A DNA stretch of 49,721 bases from Psammoneis japonica (Eukaryota): contig QPGO01000345.1 in NCBI GenBank assembly GCA_008632985.1, forward strand, positions 1-49,721, in the 5' to 3' direction. The position numbers and the translations under genes were made by a program. This document shows positions 5,060 to 46,703 of the stretch, in pieces; within the stretch, counting starts at the first letter, position 1; the number at the start of each line of letters is the position of its first letter. The notes under the pieces are model-generated. The model worked only from the letters and a program-made list of their open reading frames with translations. It ran no database searches and was not told the origin of the DNA.

Positions 5060-8000
5060 CACATCATTCTGCATGCTCCGCCCTCTCCAGTTTTTCTTTT
5101 TTCTGACGATTTTTCACGAACACATTTTTTCGTCATGAGCGCGCGCAATGGCATTCGCGAATGGGATATGGCGCCGCAACCGTGTGACAGTGATGGTGTT
5201 TTGGCTGTCTTGGGGCTAAATGTCGAGGTTGTCTGGGAGCAGATGGTCAACATTTGGTCTGGGAAGTTGGAGCCCAGCTCAAGCAGGACTCATTTGGATT
5301 GTGGTGCAAAGGGGCAGACCAGCACACCATCCTCCCACTGCGGGTGCCTGGAGCTGGTCTGAGACGAAGTTTGCATGATCCCCTGAGGCTGTGATGAGTT
5401 GCCTGTGACTCTGAACATGGCTTTTGCCATTTGTCAGCCAGCCATGCACTTCGTCAAGTGTTGTGAGATGGCTTGACCACCCTTTTTGCGCTGAAGGGCA
5501 TGGCCACAACAGAGAATTTGCGACCATGTCCATCACAACACTCAAGAAGGTCAGGCAGACAGAGTGCTGCATTGCTGTGAATGGAGCACACTGTGGAGCT
5601 GGCATTGGTGCTGCACTTGCTGATTGACAGCGCTGGCCTTGAGATCAGGCAGAGTCTGGATGTTTGTCTTGAGTGTGTCCTCACACACATTGGCTTTCCT
5701 GTCAGCTGCTTCATGTTTCACTTGGCACAAAGCTCTTGTGGGCTGCTGAAGCAGAATCTGAGTGGCCACAAAGTGAGTCCCACATCACAACATGGAAGCA
5801 TGCAGGAGCACTCACTTCACATTTTTGGGTGCAGATTCCATTGGACGATGGATGGATGGTCCTGCAAAATTGATTGGGAGGGCAGACAGGGCCAGTCTGG
5901 GGTTGTCATCAGCCAAGGCCTTGCCATCTGATGCTGGGTTGCTCTGCAAATGCTGTGTGTTGCGCAAATTACGGGTTTGGATGGTCGCCAGGAGGAAAAT
6001 GGGGTGACCATCATTCAGTGCTGTCTTTGCTCCGACCTGACATTTAGGGTCAGCCCTCAAAGCCATGGAGTCGCCGCAATGACGTTCGTTGGGGGTTGTT
6101 GTGCCATGCGGCATTGCACCACAGCTGAGAGAGGTGCTTGCAGTTCGGGACTGAGAGTTTCTTCACGACCGAGAGACAAATGAATGGACCTGATTTTGTG
6201 TTGTTTTGGAAAAGACTGCTGCAGCACCCAGAAGTCTAGGTCGCCAAATGTTCTGCGAGGCTTCAACAAATTGCTCTTGCGACAATCCCGCAATGCTTGT
6301 GTGACACACAACGCCACTGAAAGGCTTTAGCTTTGGACAGTGTTTGAGGGCACGATCCCCATCGTTGGCTTGTTCTGGAAGTGCAAAGGCATGTGTGCAA
6401 CTTCTGCATGGCTCATGAAATCCATTCATTGCAGAATGCAACTCAAATCAATTGTTGCCACAGCTCCACTTTCTAGATGCAGTGCAGTCTGCAACATCCA
6501 ATCTTTCTCATCGAGATCCAAATGTGGTCACCACAGATGAAAGAGTCTTGAGGAAAGAATGCATGGTCTTGCAGTTGCAGTCGAGACAGTCGACTGCAAA
6601 CACTGCAACAACCGACTTGAGAGTGATCCGCAGGCATCCACTGTTGATGGTGACAGAATCACATCAGCCGACAGACAAAAGAGCCTTGAACATAGAAAAT
6701 GAATGTGCCATCGTGAACTTGAACATGCTTGAGCCAATCAAGCGCACAGATGCAGCACCGACTTGAAGACCTGAAGCCGCAAGATGAAGCAATCGCTTGA
6801 TCGAGTCTTGAAACACATGGCGTGCACCACTTTTTGGCAAACCTCTGTGCAAAATGAGTCAACTCACCCTTCTTTTTGTCTTTGCTGCAAAAGTTTGGAA
6901 CATTGCACCTGTTGTCAAACAAAAAAGATTCACAATTTCTGCCAAATGCAACAACACTAGATTGCTGAGCCTCAAGATGCCAGACGGATCACGTCATCTT
7001 GTGATTCGCCAGAGACTTTGTGGTTGAGTTGAAGTGAAGAAAGTCACCAAGATGTCAAGTGCCATGTGCAATTCCAGCTGGAGCACTGCATCTTGGCCCA
7101 CAGGACAAGGTGCAGGAGGAAGTCAAAATGGAAATCACCACTCAAACATGTCATCGAAGTCTGTCCCAGATGCTGAAACCTTCCAAGTTAGAGAAATTTA
7201 TCACACTCTCTGCAATGATTTTTTTTGCCCAACAAAGCTGGTGACAAAACCTTGCTGGTTGACAAGATTGAAGTCAGCAAAGAGTGCGATGTTGCCAAGT
7301 TTGTTGAAATGCGATGTTTTCATCATTCCATTGACAAGCATGACATGGGTTCTCATGTCATTCCCAAAGACCAGATCTCTTGGTGGAAACTGTGCAGCTC
7401 CAGCACATGCACCAGGTGCAGTCATGAAATTTCACAACTGTGCCTGCTGGCATTTGTTTTGTGTTTCCCAGTTGTTGCATTGTTTGCTTCAACTGCTGTT
7501 GACAGTGCTTGTCATTGCAAACATGACACCTGGCTTTGGGAGCTGTTTGTTTGATGAAGTCGATCATTTTCATCCCCGCCACATTGTGAATTTTCATTCT
7601 TGATGATGTGTTCTCACTCTGTTCTAAGCCTTCACACACTCTCTTTATTTTCTTTCATGTTGTTTGTTTGCTTTGACTTTTGACTGCCAACACATCCTGC
7701 AAATCAACCAAACACCAAAGACCCGTCAACATGAAGCTGTTGGCAGATGAGTCAATGCTCAAAAGCCAGCTGAGGATGTCATCCTTCATCAGTGATGCTG
7801 CTGCAATTTCTCATTGTTGAAAGGGAGTGGCTGCCGCTGGAAGTGTGGGTCAGCCGGCGCCAGTGTTGCGGGCAAAGTTGTGACAGCGCTTTAATTTTTT
7901 TTTGAAATTCCACAACAAGGTGGTCAACACGGCGAAAAATTTAGAGAGCAGCAAGAACATTGCAAGGCACAGAAAGCTGGCAGCAGGGAATGCAATGGAC

Positions 8001-9150
8001 ATGAAGTGCACAGCACGGGGAAGACAAAAATTGGCAAAACAGAGCCAAGGGCAGACCAAGCAGGGGATTCAGAAATGCAATCAGATGTGCAGGTGGGCAA
8101 AGCAAAACAGAGAGAGCTTCAAGGAATGGAGGTGAGAGAAGGCACAATTTTCAAAGGCACTGTGAAAAAACAAAAGAGACAAGAAAAGAGGAAAAAGAGA
8201 GAGAAGATGGGTGGGATTTACCATCAGGAGAAACAACAATGCAAAATGCAGCAGGGTCGTTTGTCAGGAATGCATGGCTGTTAAAATTGGTGCTGCAAAG
8301 CCACAAAGCAAAAAGACTCAATTTAGAAAAACATTTCAGGTGCTGATGCTGTGCTGTGTGCAGGATGAGATAAAGTGAAGGAGCAACCAAGTGCAGTTGT
8401 TGAGACAGGTCAAACATGGTTGCAGGCAAGAATGCCTGTTGTTGATTTAGAATCAAGGAGCCTGCAAACTCAGCCACTTCTGAGCTGAAATGAAAAAGAA
8501 CACCCAACTTGGCCAGAGCCAATTGTCTGGGATTGCAGTCAGGGAATGCCCAGATTGTCATGGGCAGACAGTTAGACCAAGAGTTTTGTTGTCCAAGATG
8601 TTGTGTTTGTTGCAGAGTGGCTGACCTCCAGGCAACTGTCGCTGCTGCAGAGGGAGTGTGGCAGCTCTGCTCAAGATCAACAAGCCCCTCATTGTCGCAC
8701 AAAAATGTTGAGACCTGCATGAAGCCCCTGTGTCCTTTCAACAATTGCTTTCTTGGCTGGCTTTTGGACACCATCCTTTTGATGGTGGAGAGTGCAAATG
8801 TGGCCACAGCCATGTTCTCTTGATCTGCTGCAATGTGCGGGAGGGCAGCCACATCCTGGGATGCGCCATCTTTCCAGCCTGTCTCAAACAGCCAGCTCAA
8901 CAACGTGGGCAAGAAGGCTGTTGCAGTGACATCCCAGACATCAGGTGCTTTCTCGACACTTTGAACACCATCATGAAAAAGAGACATGGTGAGGTCAGCC
9001 GTGTGAGCCAGGGTGTCATCACAGTTGGCTGATTCTGGCTTTTTTTTTTCTTGTGCGGTGCGAGACATGGCCGTCAGTTTTATCCGCAAGAAAGGTCATT
9101 CTGAAATTTCAGTGGTGTGATTCTTATGGATGACGCAGCCTTCCGCGCAG
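5060..9150. other. TpA/CpG-depleted, TpG/CpA-rich hypermutated domain A
   Basis: TA dinucleotides nearly vanish over ~4 kb and six-frame ORFs are Cys/His/Gln-rich and almost Tyr-free. Flanking genes have normal TA content. Boundaries are approximate. Confidence 0.85.
5200..7640 (-). mobile_element. Highly degenerate DNA transposon, possibly Mutator-like (MULE) transposase
   Basis: Minus-strand fragments in MULE-like order: VMLVNGMMKTSHFNKLG (cf. DGTYKTN), GTDFD, CTWHL (CxxH), KKW..., and a possible SWIM remnant (..PCRSCTHAFA). Many frameshifts and no TIR found. Confidence 0.35.
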
Positions 9151-9356: not shown

Positions 9357-12092
9357 TCAGTGCGAAGCCCAGAACATGCCATCTACGTGCTCCGGCCGAT
9401 TAAAGAAATCGGTCATATGCTGAGCAATCTTTTTGCTGTTTTCGCATCTTTCTTGCTCATCGACAAAATCAAGCTCGCTGAATACATTGTAGATCAAAAG
9501 AACAATCAGCATTTCCCGTGCATACGCTTGGCTTCCCTCATCACCGTCATGCAGGGATGGACACTCGGAAATCATATCTTTGATCAAAGGTCCCCAGTCC
9601 ATTGACTGAACCAAATAATCCTCCAGGAACTCGTTCACCGATGCACCAACGACCACCCAATTTGTCATCAGAGTCGTAACTTCCTTGCCAATGCTGTCAA
9701 CCAAGGCCGTCGCATTGAAATCATGGGTGAATGAGCCGGACAGTCCACCAATCTGGCGGGATAAGAAGCCGGGCGTTTTACCGAGACCGTTCGCCACCCC
9801 AGAAAAGTCGCGGCCATATGTGTATTTGAAGGACGTACACATTTCTGAGGGCAGAACGTCGTTTGGTTTTAAGTGTCTTCTTTCTTTGGACGAGCCACGT
9901 TTACGCAATATCGATTTTAGGCACGCCAACGTTGTCTTGTGTGACGACTCAGCCTCTTTCTTAGATTCGCTTAGCGGTTGCAGTACCTTGGTGACCTTCC
10001 CAGTCGACCGCAGAGAATCACCGATTGCAAGAAGGAAAGTTTTAGTGAAATGACCTTTTGAGGGCTTTGTGCCTCGCCAGATTGCTTTGGATTTGCTGAA
10101 AACATCAAATATCCCATCCGCTACCGGGTGTCGTTCCATAAGGCCACGTTCGAGAAGTGCATGGTATAAATGGACGCATACGCAAGCTTGGTTCAAATGA
10201 TTTATCGTGTTTGCTCCAGACTTGATGGATGCAACGTACGTGAATAACAAAAAGTTTCCAGCAACAAGAGGGTTCCAAAAAGCCTGCAGTCTAGTGGATA
10301 AAGAACTTCCGGGATTTCCCATCGGTAAGGTATCATAAAAACCCAGCCATTTTTCTGGGGATTTCCAAAAGCTCTCCTTTTCTTTTATCGCCTTCACCTG
10401 TTTACTGAATGCCTCATATGCAAGCTTCGCTTGAATCGCAGTCCGTTTAAGATCAGAATTCCCTTGGATTGTCAGGAAGCCCATTAGCATGGCATGCACA
10501 GCGAATGAAGCCGATAGCGGCACAGCGCTATCACCCCCTGTGAATAGTTCCATTAGCTCTCGAAACAAAGGAAAGAGAGACTCTGGAATGGCTTTTGATT
10601 CCATGCGCTTCCGAAAGGAGTCGGTTCCGCATAAACGCAGGAGCTGGGGCAAGATCGTTTCGAGCAGCAGCCTGTCCATGCATGCTTCGCTCGTTGACTT
10701 GGCTGGATTTCGGTTTTCGTCCCAGGATGGCCATGTTGAATTCGGCTTGGGGATGCCTTCCGGCAAAAAAGACTTGAGACCTTGCAAAAGAGAGTGCGTA
10801 TGCAAAATGTTGTTGTTCCCGCTCAAGGCGTTGAAGTTTTCCAGCCACCTGTTACCGCGCAAAATGCGGGAGTTGCGACGACACAAATCTTTGAAATTTT
10901 CCGCTTCCTGTACTTCGGCTTTGGTGGAGTCTGGCCCTACCTCGAAAACAACTTGCAAAACGACTATTGTGGAGGCTTTGTTGACTACATCCACAGAAAT
11001 GCCAGATTCACGAGCAAACTCCTCCGCCAAGTTTTCTTCAGCACAACTTTCAGCATTCAAGGGAGATCGAAACCCAACCTCGATACACTTGGCTATGAAA
11101 TTAAGTACCATGTACGGATTCTTAGCAATTCGCTTTCGGTCAATCATTTCTTCAAGCTCATCAACAAGTTTGGTGTTGCGCCAGAGAGCTGCCGCGAGCA
11201 CATGATAAAACGATTTTGACAATTGCGGGCAGTCTACAAAAAGAGACGCTTCCATACTATGAACGTCATCGATAGCCACGTTGATTACAGCAGCCACTTT
11301 CATCAATTCAACGACAGTCTCTTGTTGGTCGAGCATCCCATGTTTTTTACCGCCAGCGCTACGATCTAGGTCTTTCCTCTTACTTTCTAGCTCACTCTTG
11401 AAGTGTTTGAGATGGCGCATGGCATTTGCTAGTATGGCATCGACGCCATAAAGATAACATATCGCGTGAAATGATGTCGATCCCTTGATAAGATCGTCTT
11501 CGATCGAATACTTGCGCTCCGATTCTTTCGGCTTTGTTGCTTTGTAAAGCTCTTCTACGTCTTCGCTACACTGGGAAGCTTCTGCTGGAGAGTGCATCAC
11601 TTCTTCATCGGCATCGATATCATCGTGCAACTCCAGGGCATCAAAATGATTTCCAGCCACTTCTGCTTCTTGATCCTGTTCACCATTGTCTTCTTGTGTC
11701 TTGGCCGACTTGATCTTTATTCCCCCATCCCCAACTAGTTGATGACTCAACTCTTGTGCCTTATGCAGTACACCCCTGCAATACTTTAGCATCGCCAGCA
11801 TGTAATCATGACCATCATCATGACTCTCCCCATACGTTGCTGCAACTTTTTCTCTGAGTTGAATAGATTCCTCAAGATTCATAAGAAGGTCCTTACTAAC
11901 CCGCAACAACATGCTCGACTTTGCTGCAGTGCGCCGCTGTTGTTTCTGTTGCTCTACAAGTTTGTTCAAGATAAACTCTGACGCATTCCCCAGGTCATCA
12001 ACATACTTTAAGGAAAAATCGGAAGGAAGCAGCCGAGCAAGACCATCGCGAAAGGCCCGAGTTTTCTCCTTGTAGCGAGCGTAAGAAGTCAT
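9357..12092 (-). CDS. 911-aa protein with DUF6604-like N-terminal region, function unknown
   Basis: Long intact ORF. The N-terminal YARYKEKT..F, HDYMLAML..C and NHFDALEL pattern resembles DUF6604 proteins (recalled, not searched). Normal Tyr and TpA content. Confidence 0.75.
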   Translation of the reverse strand: MTSYARYKEKTRAFRDGLARLLPSDFSLKYVDDLGNASEFILNKLVEQQKQQRRTAAKSSMLLRVSKDLLMNLEESIQLREKVAATYGESHDDGHDYMLAMLKYCRGVLHKAQELSHQLVGDGGIKIKSAKTQEDNGEQDQEAEVAGNHFDALELHDDIDADEEVMHSPAEASQCSEDVEELYKATKPKESERKYSIEDDLIKGSTSFHAICYLYGVDAILANAMRHLKHFKSELESKRKDLDRSAGGKKHGMLDQQETVVELMKVAAVINVAIDDVHSMEASLFVDCPQLSKSFYHVLAAALWRNTKLVDELEEMIDRKRIAKNPYMVLNFIAKCIEVGFRSPLNAESCAEENLAEEFARESGISVDVVNKASTIVVLQVVFEVGPDSTKAEVQEAENFKDLCRRNSRILRGNRWLENFNALSGNNNILHTHSLLQGLKSFLPEGIPKPNSTWPSWDENRNPAKSTSEACMDRLLLETILPQLLRLCGTDSFRKRMESKAIPESLFPLFRELMELFTGGDSAVPLSASFAVHAMLMGFLTIQGNSDLKRTAIQAKLAYEAFSKQVKAIKEKESFWKSPEKWLGFYDTLPMGNPGSSLSTRLQAFWNPLVAGNFLLFTYVASIKSGANTINHLNQACVCVHLYHALLERGLMERHPVADGIFDVFSKSKAIWRGTKPSKGHFTKTFLLAIGDSLRSTGKVTKVLQPLSESKKEAESSHKTTLACLKSILRKRGSSKERRHLKPNDVLPSEMCTSFKYTYGRDFSGVANGLGKTPGFLSRQIGGLSGSFTHDFNATALVDSIGKEVTTLMTNWVVVGASVNEFLEDYLVQSMDWGPLIKDMISECPSLHDGDEGSQAYAREMLIVLLIYNVFSELDFVDEQERCENSKKIAQHMTDFFNRPEHVDGMFWASH

Positions 12093-12329
12093 TCTAGTGC
12101 TCGTTGTGCTCTGTTTGGTACCGGTATATTATTTCACTTGTATCTCGACTGATTACGTTATAGATCGTATTGGTCCGTTATTGCACTACGGAGGTACAGT
12201 AATACAATAAGCTTGCTGCGTCGACGAAATGAGACTGGCCGCCATGGCAATGGAGTGTGTTCACAGTTTTCATAATTTCGCACAGTGCTACCGGTGTAAG
12301 GTCGTACGCGTATGTTTTATGTAAGCCTG

Positions 12330-13000
12330 TGCTGCTGGTGGGCAACCCACATTGTGCAAGAGAGAACATTTTGATGGCAACTCAACTTGCAACATCTCAA
12401 CAACTCCATGTGCATCCTGGAGGAGGGCTCTTGCCCTCTGAAACAATGCAAGTTGTGCAAGAGGATGTGTGTGCTCTGTGTGCCATCCAAACTGACCCTG
12501 ACCCAACTCTGCATGTTGTCAAAAGGGGGAAAAGGCCAGCTGCAGCAGCATGGGGCACTCAAGTTGGCACACACCCAGCCCAAGAAATTGTCTCATCAGG
12601 GTGTGGCACTCCTCTCCAGGAGGTTCAAACCTTTTGACATGTCTCAAGCACCTGCTGCCATGCACCCCCCCACCTCAACCCAGCCAAGGTGTTGTGTAAA
12701 AGTGCTGGTGCAGACACCCGCTGTGCACAATCAGCTTCACTTTGTGGGTCAACGATGTGGACCATCACTCCCCAGGTGCTCAAAGCACTTGATGGATTCC
12801 ATCAGAAGGTGGTGTGTCATCTTTCTGACAAGCAGGAGCCACGCAGTCTCTCTTGCCTTCCTGATGCCAGGAGAGGGTCACACAGAGCTTCTTTGTGCAG
12901 AGATTGCAGGCTTGTGTTTGATTGGAAGCTGCATCAGGTCCCACAGAGGGTGCACTTGTGGAAAGCATTTCCACCCAACCAGCCACCTGGATCTTTGCAA
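12330..13000 (+). mobile_element. Degenerate non-LTR retrotransposon, post-RT C-terminal fragment
   Basis: H..NSMCILEEGSCPLKQCKLC, LEEVQTF, and LCGSTMWTITPQVLKALDGFHQKVVCHLS (cf. LINE motif LYGSETW.....LKALEGFH.RVAR). Confidence 0.55.
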
Positions 13001-15199
13001 AGGTGCAGAGAGGCTGCCAGGGTCCTCCGCCGGATGCCAGCTCTGGTGTGGAGGAGGAAACACACAGGAGCAGGGGAGGAGATTTTGTCTGCAATGGAAT
13101 GGGTGTGGCTCAGCAGCAGTCTAGCGTGCGGCCCAGGGGGGTGCACCTTCTCTGCTTGGGGATCAACATCCCCAAGTCACAGGCATGGGAGGGGGCTCCA
13201 GGCTCTGGTGGCGAATTGCACTGTGAAACGGTGGGAGCACACTCATGCCGTTGTGGCTGCGGTGTGGTGGCCACAAATTTGAAGGAAGAATGTCGGCCGA
13301 CAAGGGGAGATGACCTCATTGCCCATTGATGACGCAGCTGAAAGTCATCCCCTGTGTTGCCACCATTGAACGCGCCTGAGTTGGCATTTGGAAGCAAGCT
13401 GCTGTTGCTCATTCTTCCAAAGAGCTTCAGCAGCAAGCCAAACACATGGGCTCAAGTTCAAAAAACAGGCTGGCATGAAGGGCCTCCATGAGAATCCCAT
13501 TTTGCAAATGTGGGTTGGCCTGCGCATCTTTTTGCTGTCCTTTCCACCTGTGTTTCAGTGTTGAAATTGTGTGCAATCTGAGAATTTTATTTCTCCCTCC
13601 AACACTGAAGCAAGAGCTGTTTCTTTGTGATGACGACTGTGCCAGCAGCTGATTTGTCTTCAGAATTTAAAGACGAGGAAGATTTTGAAGAACATGATGA
13701 TGCTCCACCCAAAATTGAGAGTGAAGCTTCTGCCCAAGTGAATCAGTGGGGGTGTCAAACGCCACACAATCGGATGAGATGGCAGCACCTGAGGTGCCGC
13801 CTGACACCGCCCCCCCCCTCTTGTCACTTCAGAGGAGCAACCAAATTGTGCAGAATGCAGGGAACAGCTGGGTGAGTTTTTCAAATGCAAGTTTATGATC
13901 AATCAAATGCCTGAATGTGGACATTGCGACAGAACTCACCAAGAAAAGGCAATGACACAGAGTTTGACGTTCTTTTGCAATCTCTGCGTGTTCTTCAGAG
14001 CTGACGGCATTGTCCTCAGTGGTGGCTCAAGTTCAAACAATCAAAGGGCATTGTTCCTCCTCCTGTCTGCAAAATGCAATGGATGTGAAATTGATGAAAT
14101 TGTGAAAGCAGTTGATGCATCAAAACGTGTTGAAGACACCCTGGCAAAAACAGCCTTGGCATCAACTGGCAACAGTGTGAGGCTCAATGCAATTGCTTGA
14201 AGTGAATCTCTCAAAGAACATTTACATTCTGAAATTGGTGTGTTTTCTTGCAAGTTGTGTTGGACACCACATCAAGCAAAACCAAACACTGTTGATGAAA
14301 ATGGGTTTAAGAAGCACTTGTGTGGAGAAAGCAAGACAGGCGCATTTGATTTGTCAAGTTTGTTGTTTAAAACTTCCTCCAAGGGAGTCACCCATCTTTT
14401 GTTTTGGTGCAAATGTGTTTCAAACGCTTGCATGAAAACTTGCACGAAGCATGGGAATCTCATCTTTACGAACAAACTGAGACGGCAATGGATGATGACG
14501 CAGACGACACAACAATGCCGGATCGTCTGAGAGGTGGCAATGCCAGTCATGCGGCGCATCATGTTTTGGGGTGGTTGATCAACAAAGTGCACAATGTCAA
14601 ATTGAGGGGAGCAGACAAAGAAAGTCTTCTTGCCTTTGCAGCTTTCAACGCTGTGAGCCTGGAGACTGCACACGATGCCAAGATGCTGACTCGTTGACAA
14701 CAAAGATTGCAAGCGGCAAAAGCTGGTTTGCATTCATGTGCCTTTTAGAGGCAACATTCATGGCAAATTTCAATGCCAGACAAGTGATTCATCACCAAGG
14801 ACAGGCGCTAAAGAGGATTTTGGAAACAGCCTGAAAAAGCACACCTTTGCGCCAGAAGTTTTTGAAATGTGTGCCGCCCTCCTTCGACTTAAAACAGAGA
14901 AAGGGAATGTGGCAAATGTGCCATGTCTTCCTGTTAAATTGTCACTCAGCACTCAAATCCAGTGACTTGTTGAAACTTGTTTGCAATTCATGGCCAATCA
15001 GCAATGCCAAAAGGTTGGCAACGCAAACTTGCAAAGCTGCAGCACACACACAAGGATGGTGCAAAGTTGTGAATTGCAACTCTGCGTGCACTTTCACCAA
15101 CTGCAATGTACGAAAAAATGACACCGCCACAACACCAATTGCCACAAAATAGATCACTCCATTCTGCAACATTTCCAGGGCTTGAGCATTGCATTTTGC

Positions 15200-17850: not shown

Positions 17851-17959
17851 AGAGCATTGTTGACTCTTTTTTTTAACAGGACAACTGCTTTTTTTTCTTT
17901 CCTGCAGCAGTGCCCTTTTTCTTGCTGGATGCCATGGCTGGACTGCACAAACAAAGATG

Positions 17960-18746: not shown

Positions 18747-18750
18747 TCCT

Positions 18751-21140: not shown

Positions 21141-21289
21141 ATGCACATGTCCAAAGTTGCTTCTGGCATTGATTGTTCAATGGGCCAGCCCAAGAGGCTG
21201 TGGGACAAGGTTGGTGCACACCTGGAGCTGAGGACACTGCAAGGCCACTCTCTTCCACCCTTTTGTCATTCTTGTAAAATGACACAGCA

Positions 21290-23385: not shown

Positions 23386-23519
23386 CAGGAACGTAATATT
23401 CGAAATTCCCGAGCGTTCCGGGTTTTGCTCGTGAATGAAGACAGTAAAGAAAACAAATCTAGAGATAGTGCTATGAGATAGCAGTCAACACCCGCAATAC
23501 ACCAAATGAAAAAAGTCTA

Positions 23520-35905: not shown

Positions 35906-35907
<2 letters not shown>

Positions 35908-35938
<31 letters not shown>
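35908..35938. repeat. (GA)n microsatellite
   Basis: About 15 GA units. Confidence 0.95.
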
Positions 35939-35939
<1 letters not shown>

Positions 35940-36749: not shown

Positions 36750-38330
36750 AGTGCAGGGTGACCCCAGTCACCCAAACACAATGCAGGGATGATCAAATCA
36801 ACTTGTTGATGCTGATCCAGTCCCTGTTGGAGCATCTAGATTTGGGCTTTAGAGAACCGGGAAGAGATGAATTTGAAGAAAAAAGACACGCAGCATCCCA
36901 ACCCCAACATTTTCCTCAACATGAGGTCAACACCCATCCAAACACCTGCCAAGTCCCTGAAGAGCATGCTGAGTGCAAGGGAACAAGAGAACAAGTTGCC
37001 GAGCAGTTGCCTGTCAGGATTCAAGCATCAGAGGAATGGCACTGCAAGGGAGGGTCTAAGAGACAGAGAACGTCAGCAGACAGATTTGTTTCCAATGCCA
37101 AGGAGTGCAAGGGCAAAGGTGCTGCAATGGTCCACAGAATGCTGAAAGAGACAGAATTCAAGACATGGGTGACATTCCTGTTTGCAGAGAACAGCAACGA
37201 ACATTGCTGCAAGAGCTTGGAGAAGAGCTTCTTGAGAGACTGCAGCCTGGGCAAGGACACACCACCTGTCCAAAGACATGACTGGAGGACACTGGACAAG
37301 GCAATGGACGTGCTGCTGAACCATCCTAAAGACAAAATCCTTCCAAGCAACACAATGAGAGGAACAACAAGCACACAAGCAACAACAACAGCAAAATTGA
37401 GAACAAGAGTGAGAGGTCTGGCATTCCAAAGGGCCAGAGCCATGCCCAGAAGAGCAGCCAGAGCAACACTGCAGTGTGTTGCTGCAGCAACCAACCAAAT
37501 CACAAGCTCAAAGATGGAAATCAGGGGACAGAGCCATGTGCAGACATGAGGTGATGACCACCCATTGGCAGACAGTGCCGACACAAGCATTGAGCCACCA
37601 GATCCAACCAATCAACCCGCTCCAGCTGAGGCAAGAGTGCTGCATGGCAAGGCTTGCAACAGGAAAACAAGAGGCCAGAGATGAGCATGAGAACCAAGCC
37701 AACCACAGAAATCAAAGTGGATGAAATCATCCTCAACAATGGCTCCACAACCTCCTGCATGGCAGCAAGCCAGAGACTGGTGCACAATGTGCAACAAGCA
37801 AAGACCAAGGTTGATCTGTTTGTGGGCACAGCAGTGGACACTTTGGATGAAGACTGCACCATGTCTGGATGGGGGGACATGAAGCCGGGGTCACAGAACA
37901 TGACAGCAAGCATCCCCAGTTCAAAAGATGAGAAGAGCAAGCACTGTGTCACATGCAACAACTGAGTGGCATGGATGGCTGAGTTCTGATTGCCAGAGGA
38001 CAAGAAGACTGGCAAACAAGTTGTGGTGTTCAAAGTGAATGACATCAGACCATGTGCCTTTGCACAAAGCAAGAAGTTGTTTGACCACACAAAACATCTC
38101 CAAGAAGCAAGTTGCACACAAGCATGCTGTTTTGCAGAACAAGAACAAGAGAACAAGAAGCACAGGAGTGCAAGGCTCAGGCTGTGCTGCAAAGCTGGAG
38201 CACCCAGTGTGAGGGATTTCAAGCCATTTTTGCATTCAAGCCACCAGGTGAAGAACAGGATGATGGCCATTTGACAGATGATGTTGAAGAAGAAACAAGA
38301 GAAAATGGAAATGTTCTCTGCTGTTGCTGG
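36750..38330 (+). mobile_element. Old degenerate Ty1/copia remnant (gag-protease region) of a different diatom lineage
   Basis: RTLDKAMDVLLNH (gag), EIILNNGSTTS...LVHNVQQAKTKVDL (protease, cf. ILLDNGST), EQENKK..ARLRLCCKAGAPSVRDFK (cf. AR.LY..LG.PS..DFK). No LTRs found. Confidence 0.55.
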
Positions 38331-39493
38331 TTGCAACTAGCAGCCCTGGGTTTGTGGCAAGGATTGTGGACAAAGAGATGCCAGTTGATGATGAAAGCAC
38401 ATGAGGACATCAAACTGTGGAACCCTGAAGCACTTGAGGCCTCATCCAGCTCCAGGTGACGCACAATCCACCATGCAAAAGGGTGCAGTTTAGCATGTCA
38501 AACTCCTTCAAATTTGATTTTTTTGAAAATCGAAATGCAAGTGTGCACACAAACACACGAGCTTTGTGTGCACTTGCCCTTCGATCATTTTTTGAGCGAG
38601 TTCATTGTGCCAAGTGCACAAATGGCCAGTGATGGGAATCAAACCTCCTCTCTGTGCATCACCTGCTGGAGCTGGAACAGGCCTTGAGCACATGTCCCCA
38701 CCATCATGCCAATGTTTCCATCCACAACAATTTGAGAGCATTCATCTGAGACTGTGCAACATGCTTGGAAGGCACGCAAGAGGGAGTTTTGGCAAATTGT
38801 TGGAAGCTGAGTCACGAGGCAAGGAAAATTTGGACAACGCACAAAGATGGCAAAGAGAACATGAAAGATGAGCATGCCACTGGATTGACAGGCAATGAGG
38901 AGCTGCAAGAATTGGCCCTTTAAAAGAGCTGCATTGATGGCTTGCACAAGACATCAAAGATCGGCTGCCCTGCTCCTGTGGCATGGACAAACATGAGTGT
39001 GTGCCCCCCTCATGTGACTCAATGCCAGCCACTGTCCTGAAGCTGTGCTGAGTTGTTGCAGGTTTCTTGCAAGCAGTGCAGACAGCGCCATTTGTGCAAC
39101 ACTGTCAAAGCTTGTGCTGCTCTTCCACCGTGGTGTCAACCGCACAAACCCTGCACACAGGTGGCTCTGTCACAGTGTTGAGTTCTTCGACTTGAATCCT
39201 GAGATGGTCAGCAGCTGGGTTGCAAACCTGGTTGATGGTTGATGGTTCACACAGTGAAGAGAGATTTCATCATGCTCGTGTGGAACATTTTTTGCAGAGC
39301 TTGGCCCAGCAACATGGTCAGCCACTCTCCTGATGATGTGCGGCACGCGCCAGCTTGCAAGTCTGGGGCCAGCGCAACATTGGCATGAGTGGCGGGAGTG
39401 TGCTGGAGCAGCGCCCAGATCATGGGAAATGCAAAGAACCCAGACACACTGAAGAAATGATGCCATCGCTCCTGACATGGCTCATTTGGCAAT

Positions 39494-39582
39494 TCTTTGT
39501 GAGCAAGATTTCATTGTCACCAGTTTCTCTCACCTCTCAGCTCTTTGTGAGCAAGATTTCATTGTCACCAGTTTCTCTCACC
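39494..39582. repeat. 48-bp tandem duplication, second unit interrupted by the copia insertion
   Basis: Unit tctttgtgagcaagatttcattgtcaccagtttctctcacctctcagc starts at 39494 and again at 39542. The second unit resumes as tctcagc at 46709 after the element. Confidence 0.92.
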
Positions 39583-39858
39583 TGACAGGATTTGAACAGG
39601 ATTTGGATGCGCGCGAAGTGTCGCGCGCTGTTTAGTTTACCGCGCACAGTTTTGTGTGCTTTAGTTCCGCGCGTTCACGCGCGATGTAGTTTGCTTTCGA
39701 GCCACAAGGCTCACAAGAATAATAACAGTAGCCCGATTATACCGACTTACACGTCTTTCGGCTCCTGTAACGGTCTCTGAGCGGAGACTCATCTGCTATT
39801 TAGACAGCAGTAAGGAGTTATTGTTTGAATTCTTGCCATTTGCCTTCATTTTCTATCA
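39583..39858 (+). repeat. 5' LTR (276 bp)
   Basis: TGACAGG...TTCTATCA, 270/276 identical to the 3' LTR. Confidence 0.97.
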
Positions 39859-39873
39859 GATTAACAGTCTTGC
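39859..39873 (+). promoter_or_regulatory. Putative primer-binding site complementary to the tRNA-Asn(GUU) anticodon arm
   Basis: GATTAACAGTC directly after the LTR is the reverse complement of GACTGTTAATC. There is no canonical TGG start. Confidence 0.55.
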
Positions 39874-40804
39874 TCATTGTCAACCCATTGAGCAACCGCC
39901 ATCGTCGTCGTTGATTTACCGACGACGCTATTTCAATTCTGCGTGGACCTCCGTATATATTCTACATACATCGGCAAGTCTACGCGCGTTCAATACCAGG
40001 CATCGGCAGGAATTTAACGTCACCGTCAAGTCTCCTTACCGCTGGATATCTGGATTGATTATACTACCTTCGGTCGCTGAAGACTTATATTCAACGGTCA
40101 TATCCAAGTCTATCCTTGATCAACATCCCTTGATATACCTATTCCTCGGTTAACGGTCAAGAACCCTACACATTCAAGGATCTTAGTCGCTGAAGACATA
40201 TATATATATACATGTACATGTCTTCACGGCCAAGAACCTTTATCCACTCTTCGGACTGCGGTTTTGCTGCCACTCTACAAGCACACCGAGTCCATTGCAC
40301 CTGATCTACCCCGGACTGCTGGTGCTCTACAGTTCCACTGGGTCCACGAGGACGACTGTGAGAGCAAGTGGCCGTGATTGCAGCCTGCGTTGGGGCGAGG
40401 GTGCTTTCCCGCGTTTGTTCGTTCGTCCACAGCGCCCCAACGCCTGCGTCAACTGGCCAGCCTGATCGGGAAATCCAACCGACATAAAAACAAGAACGGT
40501 TCGGGGGTCTTGTCCACCTCCAGTCAGCTTGCCTGCAGGGGTTTACAACCCGCTGCTCCGCTCGCAAGCAACCCAAAGCGCCGCTGGCTGCGGGTTCGGA
40601 CGTGCCGGCACAACTCTGCGGACCGGACAGGAAGTTTAGCACTTGACAACGAACGGGACAACAAAGCCCGGCGACTTCTGATTTTAAGATGGTTCAAGAT
40701 TTCAAGTCAAGTCTGTTTCAAGTCAAGTCCATTCTCGCCCAAGTTTCGAGTCCACCTTCGCTTCCCAACCAGAATTGATTGTCCTGACACCACTTTTGTC
40801 TGCC

Positions 40805-41930
40805 ATGGTTCTCACTCGTCAGCAACAAACCGATGGTTTCGAGCATGTTGTTGGAACCGTGCTTGCCCAAGGTGCTGGGAGTCCTCTTCGTTTGGCTTTG
40901 GCCCAAGACGGCACGGACTCGCATCAGGAACTGTTCACGTTCATGCCGCCCCAAATCGACTGGCTTGAGCACGACAACGGCACCAATGCAATCCCTTTGC
41001 CCCGTGGTTACAAGAACATGTTAGCAGCGCTGGTTAGTCTGCACATTGTCAAAGCACACAAAGGTCTTGACGTTGCCAACGACTCCTCTTTGTTCACGCA
41101 TGATGAGTTCCTTGCCTGCCGCCTCAGCCCCGACTGCATGTCTTCTGTGTCCATCGGCAGCTCACCCCTTGCACCTCCACATGTCACCAACCCGACCAAG
41201 GCACGCGACCTGGTGCGAGACTTCAAGCGAGGCATCAAGCGTGATCCCACCGCTTTCACGGCTCTCAAATCCGACAAGCAGTGGCACACTTGGCACACCT
41301 CACTTGTGGCACAAGCCCGTGCCCAAGACGTCGAGTGCATTCTAGACTCATCGTACAAACCGACCAGCCCCGAAGACAAACTGCTCTTTGCTGAACAGCA
41401 AAAGTGCATGTTCGCCGTCTTCGAACGCATCCTTCTCACCGACAAGGGCAAGGCTCTCATTCGCGAAAATGTGGGGTCTTCTGACGCACAGACCGTCTGC
41501 CGCTCCTTGTCTGAGTGCGCGCTTGCCTCCACCCGCGCATCTGTCGAGTCCTCCACCCTGCTCACGCACCTCACCACCGCACGTCTTGGTGATGGCACTT
41601 GGAAAGGTCCGACCCACGGGTTCATCCTTCATTGGCAAGATCAGTTGCGCAAGTGCGAGGCACTCATCCCCCGCCAGTGACCACTTCTCTGAAGGACAGA
41701 AGCGCGTCATGCTCGAGAATGCCGTGCACCCTGTCGAGGAACTCCGTGCTGTCAAGAACCAAGCTGATCAGCATCGTACACAGAGTGGCAAGAGCCTCAC
41801 ATGCGATCAATGCTGTGGCTTGCTCCTCTCCGCGGCAGCTCAGCACGACAGCACGTTTCAACCCAAGACGACACCCAGAGCTCCCCGACGCGCCACACAT
41901 GCACACGACGTCCCCACTCCGAGGAACCGT
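40805..41930 (+). pseudogene. gag: copia gag, frameshifted at ~41670
   Basis: DFKRGIKRDPTAF..LK.DKQW..W...AQARAQDV..ILD, TDKGKALIR, FILHWQDQLR, MLENAV. Confidence 0.85.
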
Positions 41931-44900
41931 CCGACGATGTGTTCTACGACATTGACAGCGACGTTGACGTCCTTCAAGCCAATGCTGCCCACACCCGCGG
42001 TCCCAGCCTCGCCGGTGTCCAATGGAGACGTCTCCCTCCCGACCACCAACGGCTCTGGGATTCGTTGCCCGATTCCTCCAAGGCGATCATCCTTGAGCAT
42101 TCTCGTCCGCCTCCCCGCAACCCGCGAGCCAGCAACTGCCATGAGTCTGTTGCGGCCAACCTTCACGACCAACACCTTGGGAGTGACAGTGATGTCAACT
42201 TGTCCAACACGACTCCTGCTGACTGTGGTGACTCCGCTGCACATGTGGACGCCACTTCGGACAATCCCATCCTGGCGCACCTCACCAAGCGCAAGCCACT
42301 GCCACCCAGTGATCTGCAACGTCTGTTGTCACCCAACCAAGCCCCCAATGCCAGTCGACCGGGGCCATCCGCCGCTTCCTCTGCCCCGCCAGCTCCTGCA
42401 GATGACACAGAACTTGACGGCCGCACTTGCCGCCGCGTCAACAACCACAATGTCATTTGCTCTGCCTCTGCTCATCGCTCCACACGCACTGGCGCTCTAG
42501 TCGATCGTGGGGCCAACGGCGGCATTGCTGGCGACGACGTTCGCGTCATTGCACGCACCTCTCGCCAAGTCGACGTTCAGGGCATTGACGATCACCAATT
42601 GGTGGACATCCCCATTGTCACCGCTGGTGCCGTCATTGAGACCCAGCGTGGTCCCGTCATCGCCATCCTCCATCAGTGCGCATGCACGGGAAAGGGCAAG
42701 ACCATCCATTCCTGCGGCCAGCTCGAATGGCACAAACAGGATGTCAACGATCGCTCTGTCAAGGTGCCCAACGGCTTGCAACGCATTGCCACTCCTGATG
42801 GCTGTGTCATCCCCATTGACATCAAGGCTGGCCTGCCTTGTGTTGCCATGCGACCTTACACTGATGCCGAATGGGACACCCTGCCCCATGTCATCCTCAC
42901 CGGTGATGACACATGGGACCCTTCCGTCCTCGATCACTCTGTCACTGACGACGACCAGTGGTGCGACGCGATCTCTGACCTGCAGGACGATCCCACCGCC
43001 AACCCATTTGACGAATGCGGCAACTGCCGTCACCGTGTCGTTGTCAACGAGACCATCTTGTCCGCTTCCTTGTCTGCCGATCACGCGTCCGCCCTCGATG
43101 ATCACCTCATTCTGAACGACGACGTGTTCTCCGAGTGTCATCTACATGCGATTGACCCCCAGGGCGATGACGTTCCACCTCCGGAGCGCACTGCACAGCC
43201 CAAGGACCCCCCCTTCGAGTCTCTTCGGCCTCACTTTGGCTTCCCACCCACCGATGCGGTCCGTCGCACTTTTGACTGCACCACGCAGTGCGCCCGCATG
43301 CCCGCCGGCACACACCTTCGCAAGGCCTACAAATCACCCAACCCCGCCCTTGATGTGCACCGCCGCAACGAGCCCATCGCCACTGACACCGTTTGTGCCG
43401 ACACCCCGGCCGTCGACCATGGTTGCACCAGCGCCCAACTGTTTGTTGGCACCGAGTCTACCGTCACTGACGTCTACGGCACTGAGACGGACAAAGAGTT
43501 TGTCAACACACTCGAGGATCAGATCCGTGAACGTGGTGCCCCATCCAAACTCATTAGCGACCGTGCTCAAGTTGAGATCAGCAACAAAGTGCTCGGGATC
43601 CTACGCGCCCTCTTCATCTCCAGCTGGCAAAGTGAGCCTCACCAGCAACACCAAAACTTTGCCGAGCGTCGATGCCAGACCGTGAAGCGCATGGCGAACA
43701 CTGTCATGGACCGTTTTGGTTCGCCCGCCCACACATGGCTGCTGGCGCTCATGCACGTGTGCTTCACACTCAACCACACAGCGTCCCCACGTCTCCACTG
43801 GCGCACGCCCCTCGAGACTCTCACTGGATCCACCCCGGACATCAGCCCATTGCTTCGCTTTCACTGGTGGGAACCAGTGTGCTTCCACCTCGATGACTCT
43901 GATTGGCCGTCCGAATCCCGTGAGTTGCGTGGACGCTTCGTTGGCATTGCTGAGCACGTCGGCCACCAGATGACCTTCAAGATCCCATCTGACGAGACTC
44001 AGAAGATCCTCTGCCGGTCCAACGTTCGCTCCGCTGCCCCCGATCCTGCCGTTCGAAACCTGCGTCTTGATCCTCCTGATGGGGAGCCACCTGAACCCAT
44101 CATCAAATCTCGCCATGATGACAACCCCATCGATTCTCCTGATGGGGAGGGTCAGGACACCCAAGATGCCAGTTTTCGATCCGCAAGACATCATTGGACG
44201 TACCTTCCTCATGCAGCCACAAGAGGACGGACAACGCCACAGAGCTCGCATCGTCAAGGCCGTCGAAGACCACGAATGGAAAGTGAACGGCAATCCCGAG
44301 CTCACTAAGTTCGTCTGCTCTGTCAACAATGACGAACCACGAGGAAGTCCTTGCCCACAATGACATCATGAATCACATTGAGCAAGAAGACGAAGACACC
44401 ACCATTTGGAAATTTCGACGCATCGCATCACACGAAGGACCTCTGAAGCCTCACGACCCAACCTGGAAAGGCTCAAGCTACAACATCATGCTTGAATGGG
44501 AAAGTGGGGAGATCACGTCCGAGCCTCTTGCCATCATCGCCAAGGACGACCCCGTCACCTGTGCCATCTGTGCACGAGAGAACGGACTCCTCGACACGGA
44601 TGGCTGGAAGCGGTTCCGCACTGTCGCGAGGCGCCAAAAGAAGCCATTTCGCATGGCCAACCAAGCCAAGCTTCGCTCCTTCCGCACTGCACCTCGCCAC
44701 AAGTGCGGATGCGAAGTTCCCCGGAACTGCAAACACGCCATGTCACTAGACGAACGCAACGGCAACCGCAAGTGGGGAGACGCAACTAATCTCGAGATGG
44801 ACCAACTCGACGAATGCAAAGTCTTCCATGACTGCGGGCCCTTCAAGTCTTCCACTCCTCCTGCGGGACACAAGAAGATCCGAGTGCACCTGGTGCACGA

Positions 44901-46427
44901 CGTGAAACACGACGGTCGCCACAAGGCACGACTCGCAGCCGACGGGCACCTCACGGACGCCACCTGTCGACAGTGTCTGCTCCGGAGTGGTCTCCCTCCG
45001 TGGCCTTCGGCTGATGATTTTCCTGGCCGAACTCAACGAGCTGGAGACATGGGCCACCGACATTGGCAATGCCTGCCTTGAAGCCACCACCAAGGAGAAG
45101 CTTTACATTGCAGCTGGACCCGAATTTGGCAAACTCGAAGGACACATCCTTGTCATCCACAAGGCACTGCATGGACTGCGCAGCTCCGGTCTCCGCTGGC
45201 ACGAGCGCTTCGCCGACTGCCTGCAAGCTGAAGGCTTCTTCCCCTGCCGCGCCGAACCCGACATTTGGATGCGCAGGAACGGCGACCACTGTGAACACAT
45301 TGCCGTTTATGTGGATGACCTCGCCATTGCCATGAAGGACCCTCAATCTTTCGTCGACACTCTCACGGAAAAGTGCAAGTTCAAGCTCAAGGGTGCGGGA
45401 CCCATTGAGTTCCATCTGGGTTGCAACTTTTCCCGGGACCCCGACGGAACCTTGTGCCTGTCTCCGCGCAAGTACATCGAGCGCATGGTCGACAGTTGCG
45501 CCCGACTGTTTGGGGAGAAACCCACCACCAACGCCCTGTCACCTCCAGAGAAGGGTGACCACCCCGAACTGGACACTTCCAAACTGCTGGGACCCGATGG
45601 CATTCACAAGTTCCAGTCTCTTGTTGGTTCACTCCAATGGGCAGTGTCCCTTGGTCGAATTGACATTGCCACGGCTGTCATGTCACTCTCTAGCTTCCGA
45701 GCTGCGCCCCGTCAAGGCCACTTGGATCGTGCCAAACGCGTCTGTGGGTGCCTCTCCAAGATGCGACACGGTGCTCTCCGCGTTCGCACGGAAGAGCCCG
45801 ACTGTTCGGATCTCCCTGCTCCGGCCTGTGAATGGATGCATTCCGTGTGTGGTGAAGCAGAAGAGATGATCCCGAAGGACGCTCCACCGCCCCTTGGCAA
45901 GTTCGTCACTGCCACCCACTACGTCGATGCAAACTTGCACCATTGCATGCTCACCGGACGCTCTGTCATGGGAATGCTCCACTTCCTCAACAAATTCCCG
46001 GCTGATTGGTTCTCCAAGAAACAAGCCACCGTGGAGACTGCAACCTGCGGATCTGAATTTGTTGCCGCAAGGAATTGTGTTGAGCAGATTGTCGACCTGC
46101 GCATCACCCTGCGCCACCTTGGCGTCCCGATCCGCAATGTCAGTTGCATGTTCGGTGACAACAAGTCGGTTGTAGACAGTGCCACCATCCCGCACTCCAA
46201 GTTACACAAGCAACACACCGCACCATCGTTCCACCGTGTGCGTGAGGCAATTGCCTCTGGTTGCCTTGAGTTCCACTTCATCGAAGGCTCCCGCAACCCT
46301 GCTGACATTCTCAGCAAGCATTGGGGTTGCTCCCAAATCTGGGACCTTCTCCGCCCCCTCATGTTCTGGAACTTCATTCCATCCGAAGTCGAATCTGTTT
46401 CTGTGGCTCCTCAAGCAAACTGGGGAG
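41930..46427 (+). pseudogene. pol: copia pol (protease, integrase, RT, RNase H) with several frameshifts and Tyr->Cys/His changes
   Basis: LVDRGANGG (PR), IATDTV / LISDRAQ / SEPHQQHQNFAER (IN DDE), DGRHKARL, DIGNACLEA, KALHGLRSSG, IAVYVDDL (RT), YVDAN, GSEFVA, FGDNKSV, NPADILSK (RNase H). Frame changes at ~44170, ~44335 and ~44960. Confidence 0.93.
46417..46427 (+). promoter_or_regulatory. Short polypurine tract
   Basis: AAACTGGGGAG immediately 5' of the 3' LTR. Confidence 0.65.
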
Positions 46428-46703
46428 TGACAGGATTTGAACAGGATTTGGATGCGCGCGAAGTGTCGCGCGCTGTTTAGTTTACCGCGCACAGTTTTGT
46501 GTGCTTTAGTTCCGCGCGTTCACGCGCGATGCAGTTTGCTTTCGAGCCACAAGGCTCACAAGAATGATGACAGTGGCCCGATTGTACCGACTTACACGTC
46601 TTTCGGCTCCTGTAACGGTCTCTGAGCGGAGACTCATCTGCTATTTAGACAGCAGTAAGGAGTTGTTGTTTGAATTCTTGCCATTTGCCTTCATTTTCTA
46701 TCA
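46428..46703 (+). repeat. 3' LTR (276 bp)
   Basis: Matches 39583-39858 except at 6 positions and is followed by TSD TCACC. Confidence 0.97.

Follow-up and report, generated by a model that had tools for sequence, protein, structure and literature searches.

The 49,721-bp stretch of DNA analyzed here (contig QPGO01000345.1, positions 1 to 49,721; hereafter the window) carries a copia-type long terminal repeat (LTR) retrotransposon, gene-like open reading frames (ORFs), and five blocks in which the dinucleotide TpA has almost disappeared and TpG and CpA are in excess. Over the whole window the observed/expected ratio (o/e) is 0.30 for TpA and 1.45-1.48 for TG and CA, an average that masks two distinct compositional states. 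The blocks were delimited by 1-kb sliding windows, counts per 200 bp, exact TA positions and segment statistics. They are designated D1, D2, the mini-block, D3 and the body of the copia element (Table 1), sum to 30,496 bp (61% of the window) and have a TpA o/e of 0.03-0.11. Of the six segments that separate them, five have TpA o/e of 0.58-0.67, CpG o/e of 0.96-1.15 and TG/CA o/e of 1.11-1.18; the sixth, made up of the 5' LTR and leader of the copia element (39583-40329), has a TpA o/e of 0.99. The domain structure described in the original prediction, which had been made from the letters of the sequence, is thus borne out both by composition and by the position of the edges: bounded TA-poor, TG/CA-rich domains lie beside normal genes.

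The edges of the blocks are sharp to about 50-250 bp when judged by the positions of individual TA dinucleotides. At the left edge of D2 a TA at 12322 is followed by the next only at 12697, and the right end of the block has none between 21600 and 22022. The mini-block, in which 76 TG and 46 CA were counted, is flanked by TA at 24778 and 25318. Functional-looking gene ORFs are found within 200-300 bp of block edges, among them an ORF for a DUF6604 protein between D1 and D2 and the sulfatase ORF; the mini-block, only 538 bp long, lies immediately 5' of a SET-domain-like ORF. In D1-D3 the boundaries of TpA loss and of CpG loss coincide within about 100-250 bp, and D3, which has internal repeats, is the block with the fullest loss of both dinucleotides.

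Table 1. Features of the window. Ratios are observed/expected values; TG/CA is the mean for the two dinucleotides.
Feature	Position	Strand	TA/length (bp)	TpA	CpG	TG/CA	Remarks
D1	5060-9100	.	22/4041	0.081	0.35	1.73	
D2	12325-22020	.	43/9696	0.067	0.29	1.75	
Mini-block	24780-25317	.	1/538	0.031	0.48	1.80	
D3	29460-39582	.	18/10123	0.028	0.134	1.78	
Copia body (internal region, gag-protease-integrase-reverse transcriptase)	40330-46427	+	31/6098	0.114	0.90	1.42	RVT_2, E 3e-20; TpA lost, CpG intact
Copia element	39583-46703	+					276-bp LTRs, TG...CA termini; target-site duplication (TSD) TCACC at 39578-39582 and 46704-46708
Copia 5' LTR	39583-39858	+	16/276				21 CG; not hypermutated
Copia 5' leader	39859-40329	+					Not hypermutated; 37 TA and 33 CG counted in 39859-40400
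Copia 3' LTR	46428-46703	+	10/276				Partly hypermutated; 10 of 16 TA left
Old repeat copy in D2, TA-free and CpG-poor	20259-20852	+					TA-normal partner at 22470-23062
High-copy repeat, TA-normal	22021-23335	+		0.64 (22021-24779)			Adjoins right edge of D2
Rpn9/PSMD13-like proteasome lid gene fragment in D2	18962-19801	-					Hypermutated; PSD13_N, E 1.3e-25
Pyridine nucleotide-disulphide oxidoreductase dimerisation fragment in D2	21180-21455	-					PF02852, E 2.7e-6, 28.0 bits (cut-off 25.3)
Transposase-like remnant	15387-15827	-					PF21788 (TNP-like GTP-binding insertion domain), E 6.2e-4, 20.6 bits, below cut-off of 24.8; a lead only
DUF6604 ORF	9360-12128	-					923 aa, uninterrupted; between D1 and D2
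Sulfatase ORF	start 46987						Right of copia element

The TA-free sequence is found in read-derived contigs as well as in the deposited assembly. A public sequencing run (X1; 141 Mb of Logan contigs) contains 88% of the sampled words of 26001-36000, and its contigs were compared with the window over 20001-40000. Among the data sets listed as containing 26001-36000 there was none of RNA, a neutral result as regards expression. A contig matching 20099-20879 in D2 shows no difference (depth 63.7), and contigs matching D3 at 33904-34983, 35951-37463 and 38506-39523 show none, one and none, respectively (depths 57.6, 63.5 and 69.8). The depth over single-copy genes in the same run is 57.4 (25289-27461) and 55 (27920-28971). 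Because these contigs are independent of the deposited assembly and carry the TA-free sequence, an error of the assembler or polisher is excluded. The raw-read check suggested in the original prediction therefore speaks against a polishing artefact, the sequence being TA-free at single-copy depth.

How TpA was lost can be read from comparisons in which the ancestral state is known. The two LTRs of the copia element differ at 6 of 276 positions, and at all six the 5' LTR has TA where the 3' LTR has TG (five) or CA (one); no other kind of difference is present over the 276 bp. In control LTR pairs from five related metagenomic elements, differences of TA against TG or CA make up 11 of 119 (P = 6e-7 for six out of six). 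Since the LTR pair differs inside an element that is bounded by its TSD, some of the TpA change took place on chromosomal DNA after integration.

For comparison with the body of the element, 80 metagenomic loci coding for relatives of its protein were used. Conserved protein columns were taken from a tblastn comparison of 118 homologues (at least 70% agreement among at least 25 aligned). Tyrosine is kept in 4 of 22 conserved Tyr columns, the others having changed to Cys (11, codons TGY), His (4, codons CAY), Phe (2) or Trp (1), and 365 of 392 other conserved columns are kept (Fisher P 7e-16). At the level of bases, where a consensus site was defined by a dinucleotide present in 60% or more of the aligned relatives, of which there had to be at least 15, 7 of 47 TA sites are retained; 26 have become TG, 9 CA and 5 TT, so that TG and CA account for 35 of the 40 changed sites. 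Seven normal relatives scored by the same method keep TA at 301 of 347 consensus sites (P 1e-23). Within the element, none of the 16 TA of the 5' LTR has changed, by parsimony, and the leader is likewise spared; about 85% of the TA-consensus sites of the body and 6 of the 16 in the 3' LTR are lost. The first polarised change lies at 40970 and the last at 46665, and the right flank of the element is TA-normal. A (TA)6 microsatellite stands intact in the unmutated leader at 40199-40210, about 130 bp ahead of the TA-poor part.

D2 provides a further comparison, between its old repeat copy and the TA-normal partner outside the block. Over 601 aligned columns the two agree at 75%. Not one of the 14 TA of the normal copy survives in D2 (7 are TG, 5 CA), and only 1 of the 38 CG does (16 TG, 17 CA), compared with 43 of 50 TG and 21 of 30 CA. 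The LTR pair, the conserved Tyr codons and this pair of a mutated and an unmutated duplicate are the three comparisons by which the original prediction had polarised the change as TA to TG or CA. All three stand: six of six LTR differences, 15 of the 18 lost Tyr columns and 12 of the 14 lost TA sites have the proposed direction. Between the repeats within D3, CA against TG is the commonest double difference (7 in the pair 29491-30031/32653-33235 and 8 in the pair 30299-30852/30716-31222), which indicates that the copies were mutated independently, after duplication.

The change is specific to TpA. In the copia element all 15 non-TA consensus dinucleotides are kept at 60-100%. The lowest are AT (62 of 104, changed mostly to AC) and TG (68 of 99, changed mostly to CG), and a wider A:T to G:C bias extending beyond TpA was considered on this account. 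It was rejected: normal GC-rich relatives differ from the consensus in the same way, with 30 and 31 changes of the two kinds (AT to AC and TG to CG) in L062, 31 and 30 in L034, and 29 and 25 in L023, against 24 and 25 in the window, so that these changes represent codon usage in the clade. Of 93 AA sites 72 are kept, a share like that of normal relatives (70-82 of 90-104), and the proposed A to G change at TpA therefore holds in its narrow form. The same specificity is seen in 3-mer frequencies of the blocks relative to normal DNA, which are 0.03 for ATA/TAT and for GTA/TAC, 0.10 for CTA/TAG and 0.18 for TAA/TTA; the values are 1.01 for AAA/TTT, 1.09 for AAG/CTT and 0.79-1.39 for words containing TC.

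The bases flanking TpA appear to influence its survival. The 115 TA surviving in the blocks were compared with 623 TA in normal segments. Sites with a 3'-pyrimidine on both strands (ATAT, ATAC/GTAT, GTAC) account for 6 of the 115 and 203 of the 623; those with a 3'-pyrimidine on one strand, 50 and 321; and those with none (TTAA, CTAA/TTAG, CTAG), 59 and 99, respectively. At polarised sites of the copia element the ratio of TG to CA is 16:3 in the context Y-TA-Y and 9:6 in R-TA-Y. These counts tentatively suggest a preference for 5'-TAY-3' on the changed strand. The preference gains no support from a related element described below (L066; 2:2 and 4:2) or from the LTR sites, about half of which fit.

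A strand bias reflecting replication or transcription asymmetry was also considered, and we make no claim for it. Polarised sites favour A to G on the + strand of the window by 42:17 (P 0.0015), and without the copia element the ratio is 16:8 (P 0.15); much of the 26:9 excess in copia is explained by flank context. In D1-D3 and the mini-block together, TG and CA are nearly equal (2704 and 2645), and the TG/CA skew in 500-bp windows is no greater in the blocks than in the genes.

The relation of TpA loss to CpG loss gives an order of events. In the copia element 24 of 27 CG-consensus sites are kept, compared with 7 of 47 TA-consensus sites; having lost TpA and kept CpG, the element indicates that the TpA process is distinct from CpG decay and faster. 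We read the CpG loss in D1-D3 (o/e 0.13-0.35), judged from composition, as probably a second, separate process in the same blocks. The metagenomic relatives show that the two can be dissociated. Among the 80, 14 have a CpG o/e of 0.03-0.31, and in 13 of these TpA o/e is at least 0.44. Seven loci (L037, L045, L052, L056, L015, L036 and L070) have CpG o/e of 0.03-0.15 and TpA o/e of 0.44-0.92. These loci are CpG-decayed yet TpA-normal; elements of this clade thus often lose CpG while TpA stays.

Only one of the 80 relatives, L066, is depleted in TpA by mutation. It comes from a different metagenome assembly and, over its whole contig of 2447 bp, has 3 TA (TpA o/e 0.02; CpG o/e 0.31). None of its 13 conserved Tyr is kept (5 are Cys, 4 His), nor is any of 15 TA-consensus sites (7 TG, 4 CA). 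By these signs it is a second natural example of the TpA-erasure footprint. Another relative, L033, has a TpA o/e of 0.27, with a TA-normal first 800 bp and a TA-poor body (0-4 TA per 200 bp). It keeps 11 of 14 conserved Tyr, and its body is for that reason taken to be natively TA-poor. For the same reason L033 was not retained as a second, independent case of a spared 5' end.

Copy number was gauged from X1 by summing the depth of all contigs at least 80% alike, a measure that gives a rough copy number only. Against about 57 for single-copy sequence, the summed depth is 233 for the bin 24670-25336, which contains the mini-block, 4137-5259 for 22002-23335, and 199,295 for the bin that contains the LTR. 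The last two sequences are young and TA-normal, and the insertions to which they belong (the repeat 22021-23335 and the copia element with its 5' LTR) lie exactly at the right edges of D2 and D3 (22020 and 39583). The window can be pictured as a layered island, in which young inserts are TA-normal, the intermediate copia element lacks only TpA, and the old blocks lack both TpA and CpG. Before the copia element inserted, the edge of D3 lay at most about 50 bp from the insertion site and about 280 bp upstream of the sulfatase ORF.

Inside the blocks, Pfam scans covering 177 distinct translated ORFs of the window identified RVT_2 of the copia element, two host-type gene fragments and one sub-threshold transposase-like domain (Table 1). 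The Rpn9/PSMD13-like fragment in D2 shows the mark of the process in its protein sequence: aligned with human and rat PSMD13, six Tyr of the solved protein face His (4) or Cys (2). The original prediction had called the domains mostly rich in transposable elements (TEs). The copia element and the repeat copy in D2 agree with this description and, in D3, internal repeats and a summed depth of about 2-14 times single copy suggest TE content; the Pfam scans, however, found little TE content in the blocks. What the blocks have in common is inserted, duplicated or dead DNA, a class wider than transposons. The many ORFs of 200-300 aa on both strands at 12375-21950 and 29495-38336 arise because DNA free of TA has TGA as its only stop codon.

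One precedent for a process of this kind was found, in the chlorarachniophyte Bigelowiella natans, described in a 2026 preprint (Mettrop et al., 10.64898/2026.01.13.699255). There, 231 of 302 nuclear mutations in 15 mutation-accumulation lines fell in two integrated viral regions, and 230 of these 231 were A to G or T to C, all at TpA. In each generation a site mutated at a rate of about 6e-7; counted per A/T site the rate was about 7e-7, compared with 3.5e-10 in the background. The genome contains 124 clusters of 1-kb windows depleted in TpA and enriched in CpA and TpG, and 324 coding sequences with a mean TpA frequency of 0.0018 that are enriched for reverse-transcriptase and DDE domains (Mettrop et al., 10.64898/2026.01.13.699255). 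The process put forward as a candidate new one in the original prediction had thus already been reported. The absence of a known description from diatoms, also noted there, agrees with our literature search, whose scope did not extend to subscription journals: none was found, and in two papers on diatom TEs (PMC2806351; 10.1101/2025.10.24.684338) the terms TpA, dinucleotide, hypermut and deaminat do not occur.

The window has every testable defining feature of the TpA process of B. natans. In both, the changes are A to G or T to C only, at TpA only, and give TpG or CpA depending on the strand. In both they are confined to bounded inserted DNA within an otherwise normal genome; here insertion is demonstrated for the copia element, by its TSD, and for 20259-20852, and is presumed for D1 and D3. 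The most depleted sequences there have a TpA frequency of about 0.0018, and D3 has 18 in 10,122, or 0.0018. D1-D3 also satisfy the window definition of the preprint for depletion and enrichment, with TpA o/e of 0.00-0.12 and mean TG/CA o/e of 1.57-1.99 across many successive 1-kb windows, although the o/e used here may not have been computed exactly like its Rho. The copia body falls below the TpA threshold throughout and exceeds that for TG/CA in a few windows only (1.27-1.60).

The two cases differ in several respects. The host of the B. natans process is a rhizarian, and the named relatives of the copia element are from diatoms; a rate was measured there, and a footprint is seen here. The targets described in the accessible text of the preprint are DNA of nucleocytoplasmic large DNA viruses and virophages, and those in the window are an LTR retrotransposon, unclassified repeats and host-type fragments, with no viral genes recognised. 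Erasure is nearly complete here (o/e 0.03-0.11), compared with a Rho of 0.45 in the actively mutating viral insert there. The co-extensive loss of CpG, the loss of TpA before CpG, and the flank preference are absent from the discussion in the preprint as available, where neither CpG nor diatoms is mentioned. With these differences, we read the window as a second-lineage example of the process first described in B. natans.

Other known systems resemble the process in part. Fungal repeat-induced point mutation (RIP) changes C to T, usually at CpA, creates TpA and AT-rich DNA, and is triggered by duplication. Like the process in the window, it is a regional, dinucleotide-specific transition hypermutation; it disables DNA that has been inserted or duplicated, and sharp blocks of altered composition result. 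However, its polarity is opposite at every polarised site in the window, where TpA is destroyed and TpG and CpA are made, as the original prediction had stated; and RIP responds to duplication, whereas the sequences of highest summed depth here are unmutated. Decay of CpG through 5-methylcytosine also gives TpG and CpA, and it has acted in D1-D3 within the same boundaries (33 of 38 CG have become TG or CA in the duplicate pair), but it cannot remove TpA and is slower (24 of 27 CG kept in copia, against 7 of 47 TA). The footprints of APOBEC3 and ADAR in animal retroelements and viruses are those of deaminase-type, context-specific transition hypermutation directed against mobile or viral nucleic acids. 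These enzymes act on RNA or on intermediates before integration; the asymmetry of the LTRs and the blocks that are not retroelements require action on chromosomal DNA.

We consider it very likely that TpA has been mutated in place to TpG or CpA within bounded stretches, and likely that this is so by a process akin to that of B. natans. Its direction, its restriction to TpA and its action after integration are shown: on either strand of chromosomal DNA, A:T is changed to G:C at TpA, a self-complementary step. It would act within sharply bounded inserted, duplicated or decayed DNA and spare nearby genes, some less than 300 bp away, and would run faster by far than ordinary substitution and also faster than CpG decay. 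Indirect support for a rate far above background comes from the copia element, in which about 85% of TA-consensus sites are gone although the 276-bp LTRs have no other substitution. By a rough estimate, at rates like those in B. natans most TpA would be gone in about 1e5 generations, in which far less than one ordinary change is expected in the LTRs. As to the chemistry, an enzyme may deaminate the adenine of 5'-TA-3', perhaps with a preference for 5'-TAY-3', to hypoxanthine, which is read as G at the next replication. Such an enzyme could be drawn to the stretches by whatever labels them silent or foreign. The polynucleotide adenosine deaminases that share the TadA/ADAT2 fold have as their natural target an adenine preceded by U. 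ADAR also prefers a 5' U (10.64898/2026.01.13.699255, Discussion), an ADAT2 has been found to deaminate DNA (PMC10354150), and the authors of the B. natans preprint likewise hypothesise adenine deamination (10.64898/2026.01.13.699255). We favour adenine deamination because it gives exactly A to G, and because of the context of TadA/ADAT2, the activity of an ADAT2 on DNA and the same hypothesis having been reached for B. natans; it is a plausible candidate whose chance we put a little short of even.

Several observations weigh against this account, in whole or in part. The ORF translations of D1 and D3 have no Pfam domain, and no TE or viral protein domain was recognisable in them; we infer an origin of these blocks as foreign or repeat DNA from their internal repeats and the summed depth of about 2-14 times single copy. 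D2 holds host-type gene fragments, which makes the class of targets wider than TEs. The sequences of highest depth are TA-normal, so repetition alone is not the trigger, and the description of the process as repeat-targeted, in the sense of RIP, is not supported. Given the natively TA-poor body of L033, the low TpA of the copia body may also be partly native. The polyprotein frame of the copia element shifts near 44160, 44338 and 44962 (frames 2 to 3 to 1 to 2 by tblastn, all three within about 800 bp), and three frame changes in an element whose LTRs show no ordinary substitution are unexplained; they may be errors of the assembly or else real indels, perhaps left by repair where bases were deaminated. 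The run X1, the platform of which is unrecorded, may be the source of the assembly itself, and a misreading chemistry common to its library may have shaped both. The assignment of the window to diatoms is probable: of 120 listed copia homologues the four with organism names are all from diatoms (Nitzschia inconspicua, Phaeodactylum tricornutum, Cylindrotheca closterium and Nitzschia sp.), and the two host proteins carry no taxonomic signal. The window is not from B. natans; its long unbroken ORFs and the lack of a near-identical protein in a collection of 5.8 billion (best match 51% identity) speak against any sequenced reference species. Finally, TpA being self-complementary, sequence cannot separate deamination of adenine from modification of thymine.

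Modification of thymine is the alternative that survives best, and we regard it as unlikely though worth serious attention. In this scheme the thymine of TpA is modified as a silencing mark, for example to 5-hydroxymethyluracil (5hmU) or 5-formyluracil by a hydroxylase of the TET/JBP type, and occasionally pairs with G, giving T to C. All the polarised changes fit T to C as well as they fit A to G, and the shared boundaries of TpA and CpG loss in D1-D3 are as expected for two marks on the same chromatin. We know of no 5hmU, nor of a hydroxylase that makes it, in diatoms. TC is not depleted in the window (3-mer ratios of 0.79-1.39), and the scheme has to assume that 5hmU mispairs so frequently that about 85-97% of sites are erased. 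A precedent for a thymine-directed modification of repeats comes from dinoflagellates, in which, according to the available text of one paper, 5hmU made by TET/JBP enzymes silences TEs, and older work on Crypthecodinium had found a preference for T in TA and TC (PMC11572971). No mutational footprint is described in that text, and the TC component has no counterpart here. Mapping at base resolution in Breviolum, as far as the accessible text goes, found 5hmU without sequence preference (PMC11071213).

That the sequences were edited before integration is highly improbable. An ADAR- or ADAT-like enzyme acting at UpA in retrotransposon RNA, or a deaminase acting on cDNA, could account for the excess of changes on the sense strand of copia (TG 26 against CA 9; binomial P 0.006) and for an untouched 5' LTR and leader ahead of a mutated body. 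But the two LTRs share one template and yet differ at six TA sites, which editing of RNA cannot yield, and editing of the minus-strand cDNA predicts TA to CA on the plus strand, the opposite of five of the six LTR changes. The sense-strand excess is largely an effect of flanks, as seen from the two contexts compared above. Neither D1-D3 nor the mini-block can be recognised as retroelements, TG and CA are near-equal in them, and D2 includes host-type gene fragments.

It is similarly improbable that the true DNA has TA and that the loss is an artefact, either of a base modification in silent chromatin that makes the sequencer misread TA or of polishing. The unrecorded platform of X1, its possible identity with the source of the assembly, and the overlap of the blocks with CpG-depleted, presumably modified, chromatin leave some room for this view. 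Against it, k-mer contigs built from raw reads agree with the assembly at single-copy depth (0-1 differences over 0.8-1.5 kb), and each site is fixed as TG or CA, without mixtures. L066, from an unrelated metagenome assembly, bears the same signature; the blocks have also lost CpG, which is a signature of ordinary evolution; and the de novo calls of the same type of mutation in B. natans were made with Illumina data.

Error-prone patch repair by a Y-family polymerase of the Pol-eta type (WA to WG), one of the candidates in the original prediction, and GC-biased gene conversion in heterochromatin each yield A:T to G:C and can be regional. They are scarcely credible here: the motif of Pol-eta includes AA, which is untouched (72 of 93 kept, as in normal relatives, and ratios of 1.01 and 1.09 for 3-mers containing it), gene conversion has no dinucleotide specificity, and neither accounts for an o/e of 0.03 in a single dinucleotide. 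Native composition or selection, that is, foreign or coding DNA that never had TA, has a parallel in the body of L033 with its 11 of 14 Tyr, but is barely conceivable as an explanation, being refuted for D2 and copia by the LTR pair, the Tyr columns, the TA-consensus sites and the duplicate pair, all of which show loss from a TA-bearing ancestor. Nor is selection at work on a polyprotein that retains 4 of 22 conserved Tyr and changes frame three times.

In-place mutation of TpA would have consequences beyond this window. One prior report of TpA-specific A to G hypermutation of chromosomal DNA was found, the 2026 preprint on one rhizarian alga. If the window is from a diatom, as the relatives of the copia element suggest, the process would also occur in stramenopiles; it would then be a candidate for a widespread genome defence of marine protists, with diatoms as tractable models in which to seek the enzyme. 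To what the preprint describes, the window adds erasure that is nearly complete, action after integration and stopping within a few hundred bp of functional genes. It further adds that the process precedes CpG decay, affects fragments of host genes as well, and spares the contexts TTAA, CTAA and CTAG. A bolder proposal, which we offer tentatively as possible rather than probable, is that diatoms and chlorarachniophytes share an old, dedicated DNA-editing defence. A 5'-TAY-3' adenine deaminase, guided to newly silenced insertions with a precision below 300 bp, would erase TpA, and with it every Tyr codon, TAA and TAG, in about 1e5 generations, before CpG decay; such a system would be RIP's counterpart of opposite polarity, widespread among protists, and would provide a natural A to G editor of double-stranded DNA. 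A natural enzyme that makes A to G changes in DNA would be of interest to base-editing research. For genome annotation, DNA that is free of TA lacks TAA and TAG stops, and the long spurious ORFs that result (many of at least 200 aa in D2 and D3) mislead gene callers, and hypermutated TEs evade repeat annotation based on homology.

Some further features were observed in the window. Within D3, diverged direct repeats are arrayed at 30240-31400 at intervals of 61-416 bp, most of them about 180-230 bp, and in this region ApT is unusually low, the AT o/e being 0.27-0.51 in 1-kb windows. Normal DNA at 1923-2122 contains a TA-rich unit of about 98 bp in two tandem copies that share 91% identity. In a collection of 5.8 billion proteins, the product of the DUF6604 ORF has one homologue, at 24% identity; its atlas neighbours are mostly ascomycete, which is odd for a probable diatom. 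The best match of the sulfatase in the same collection has 51% identity.

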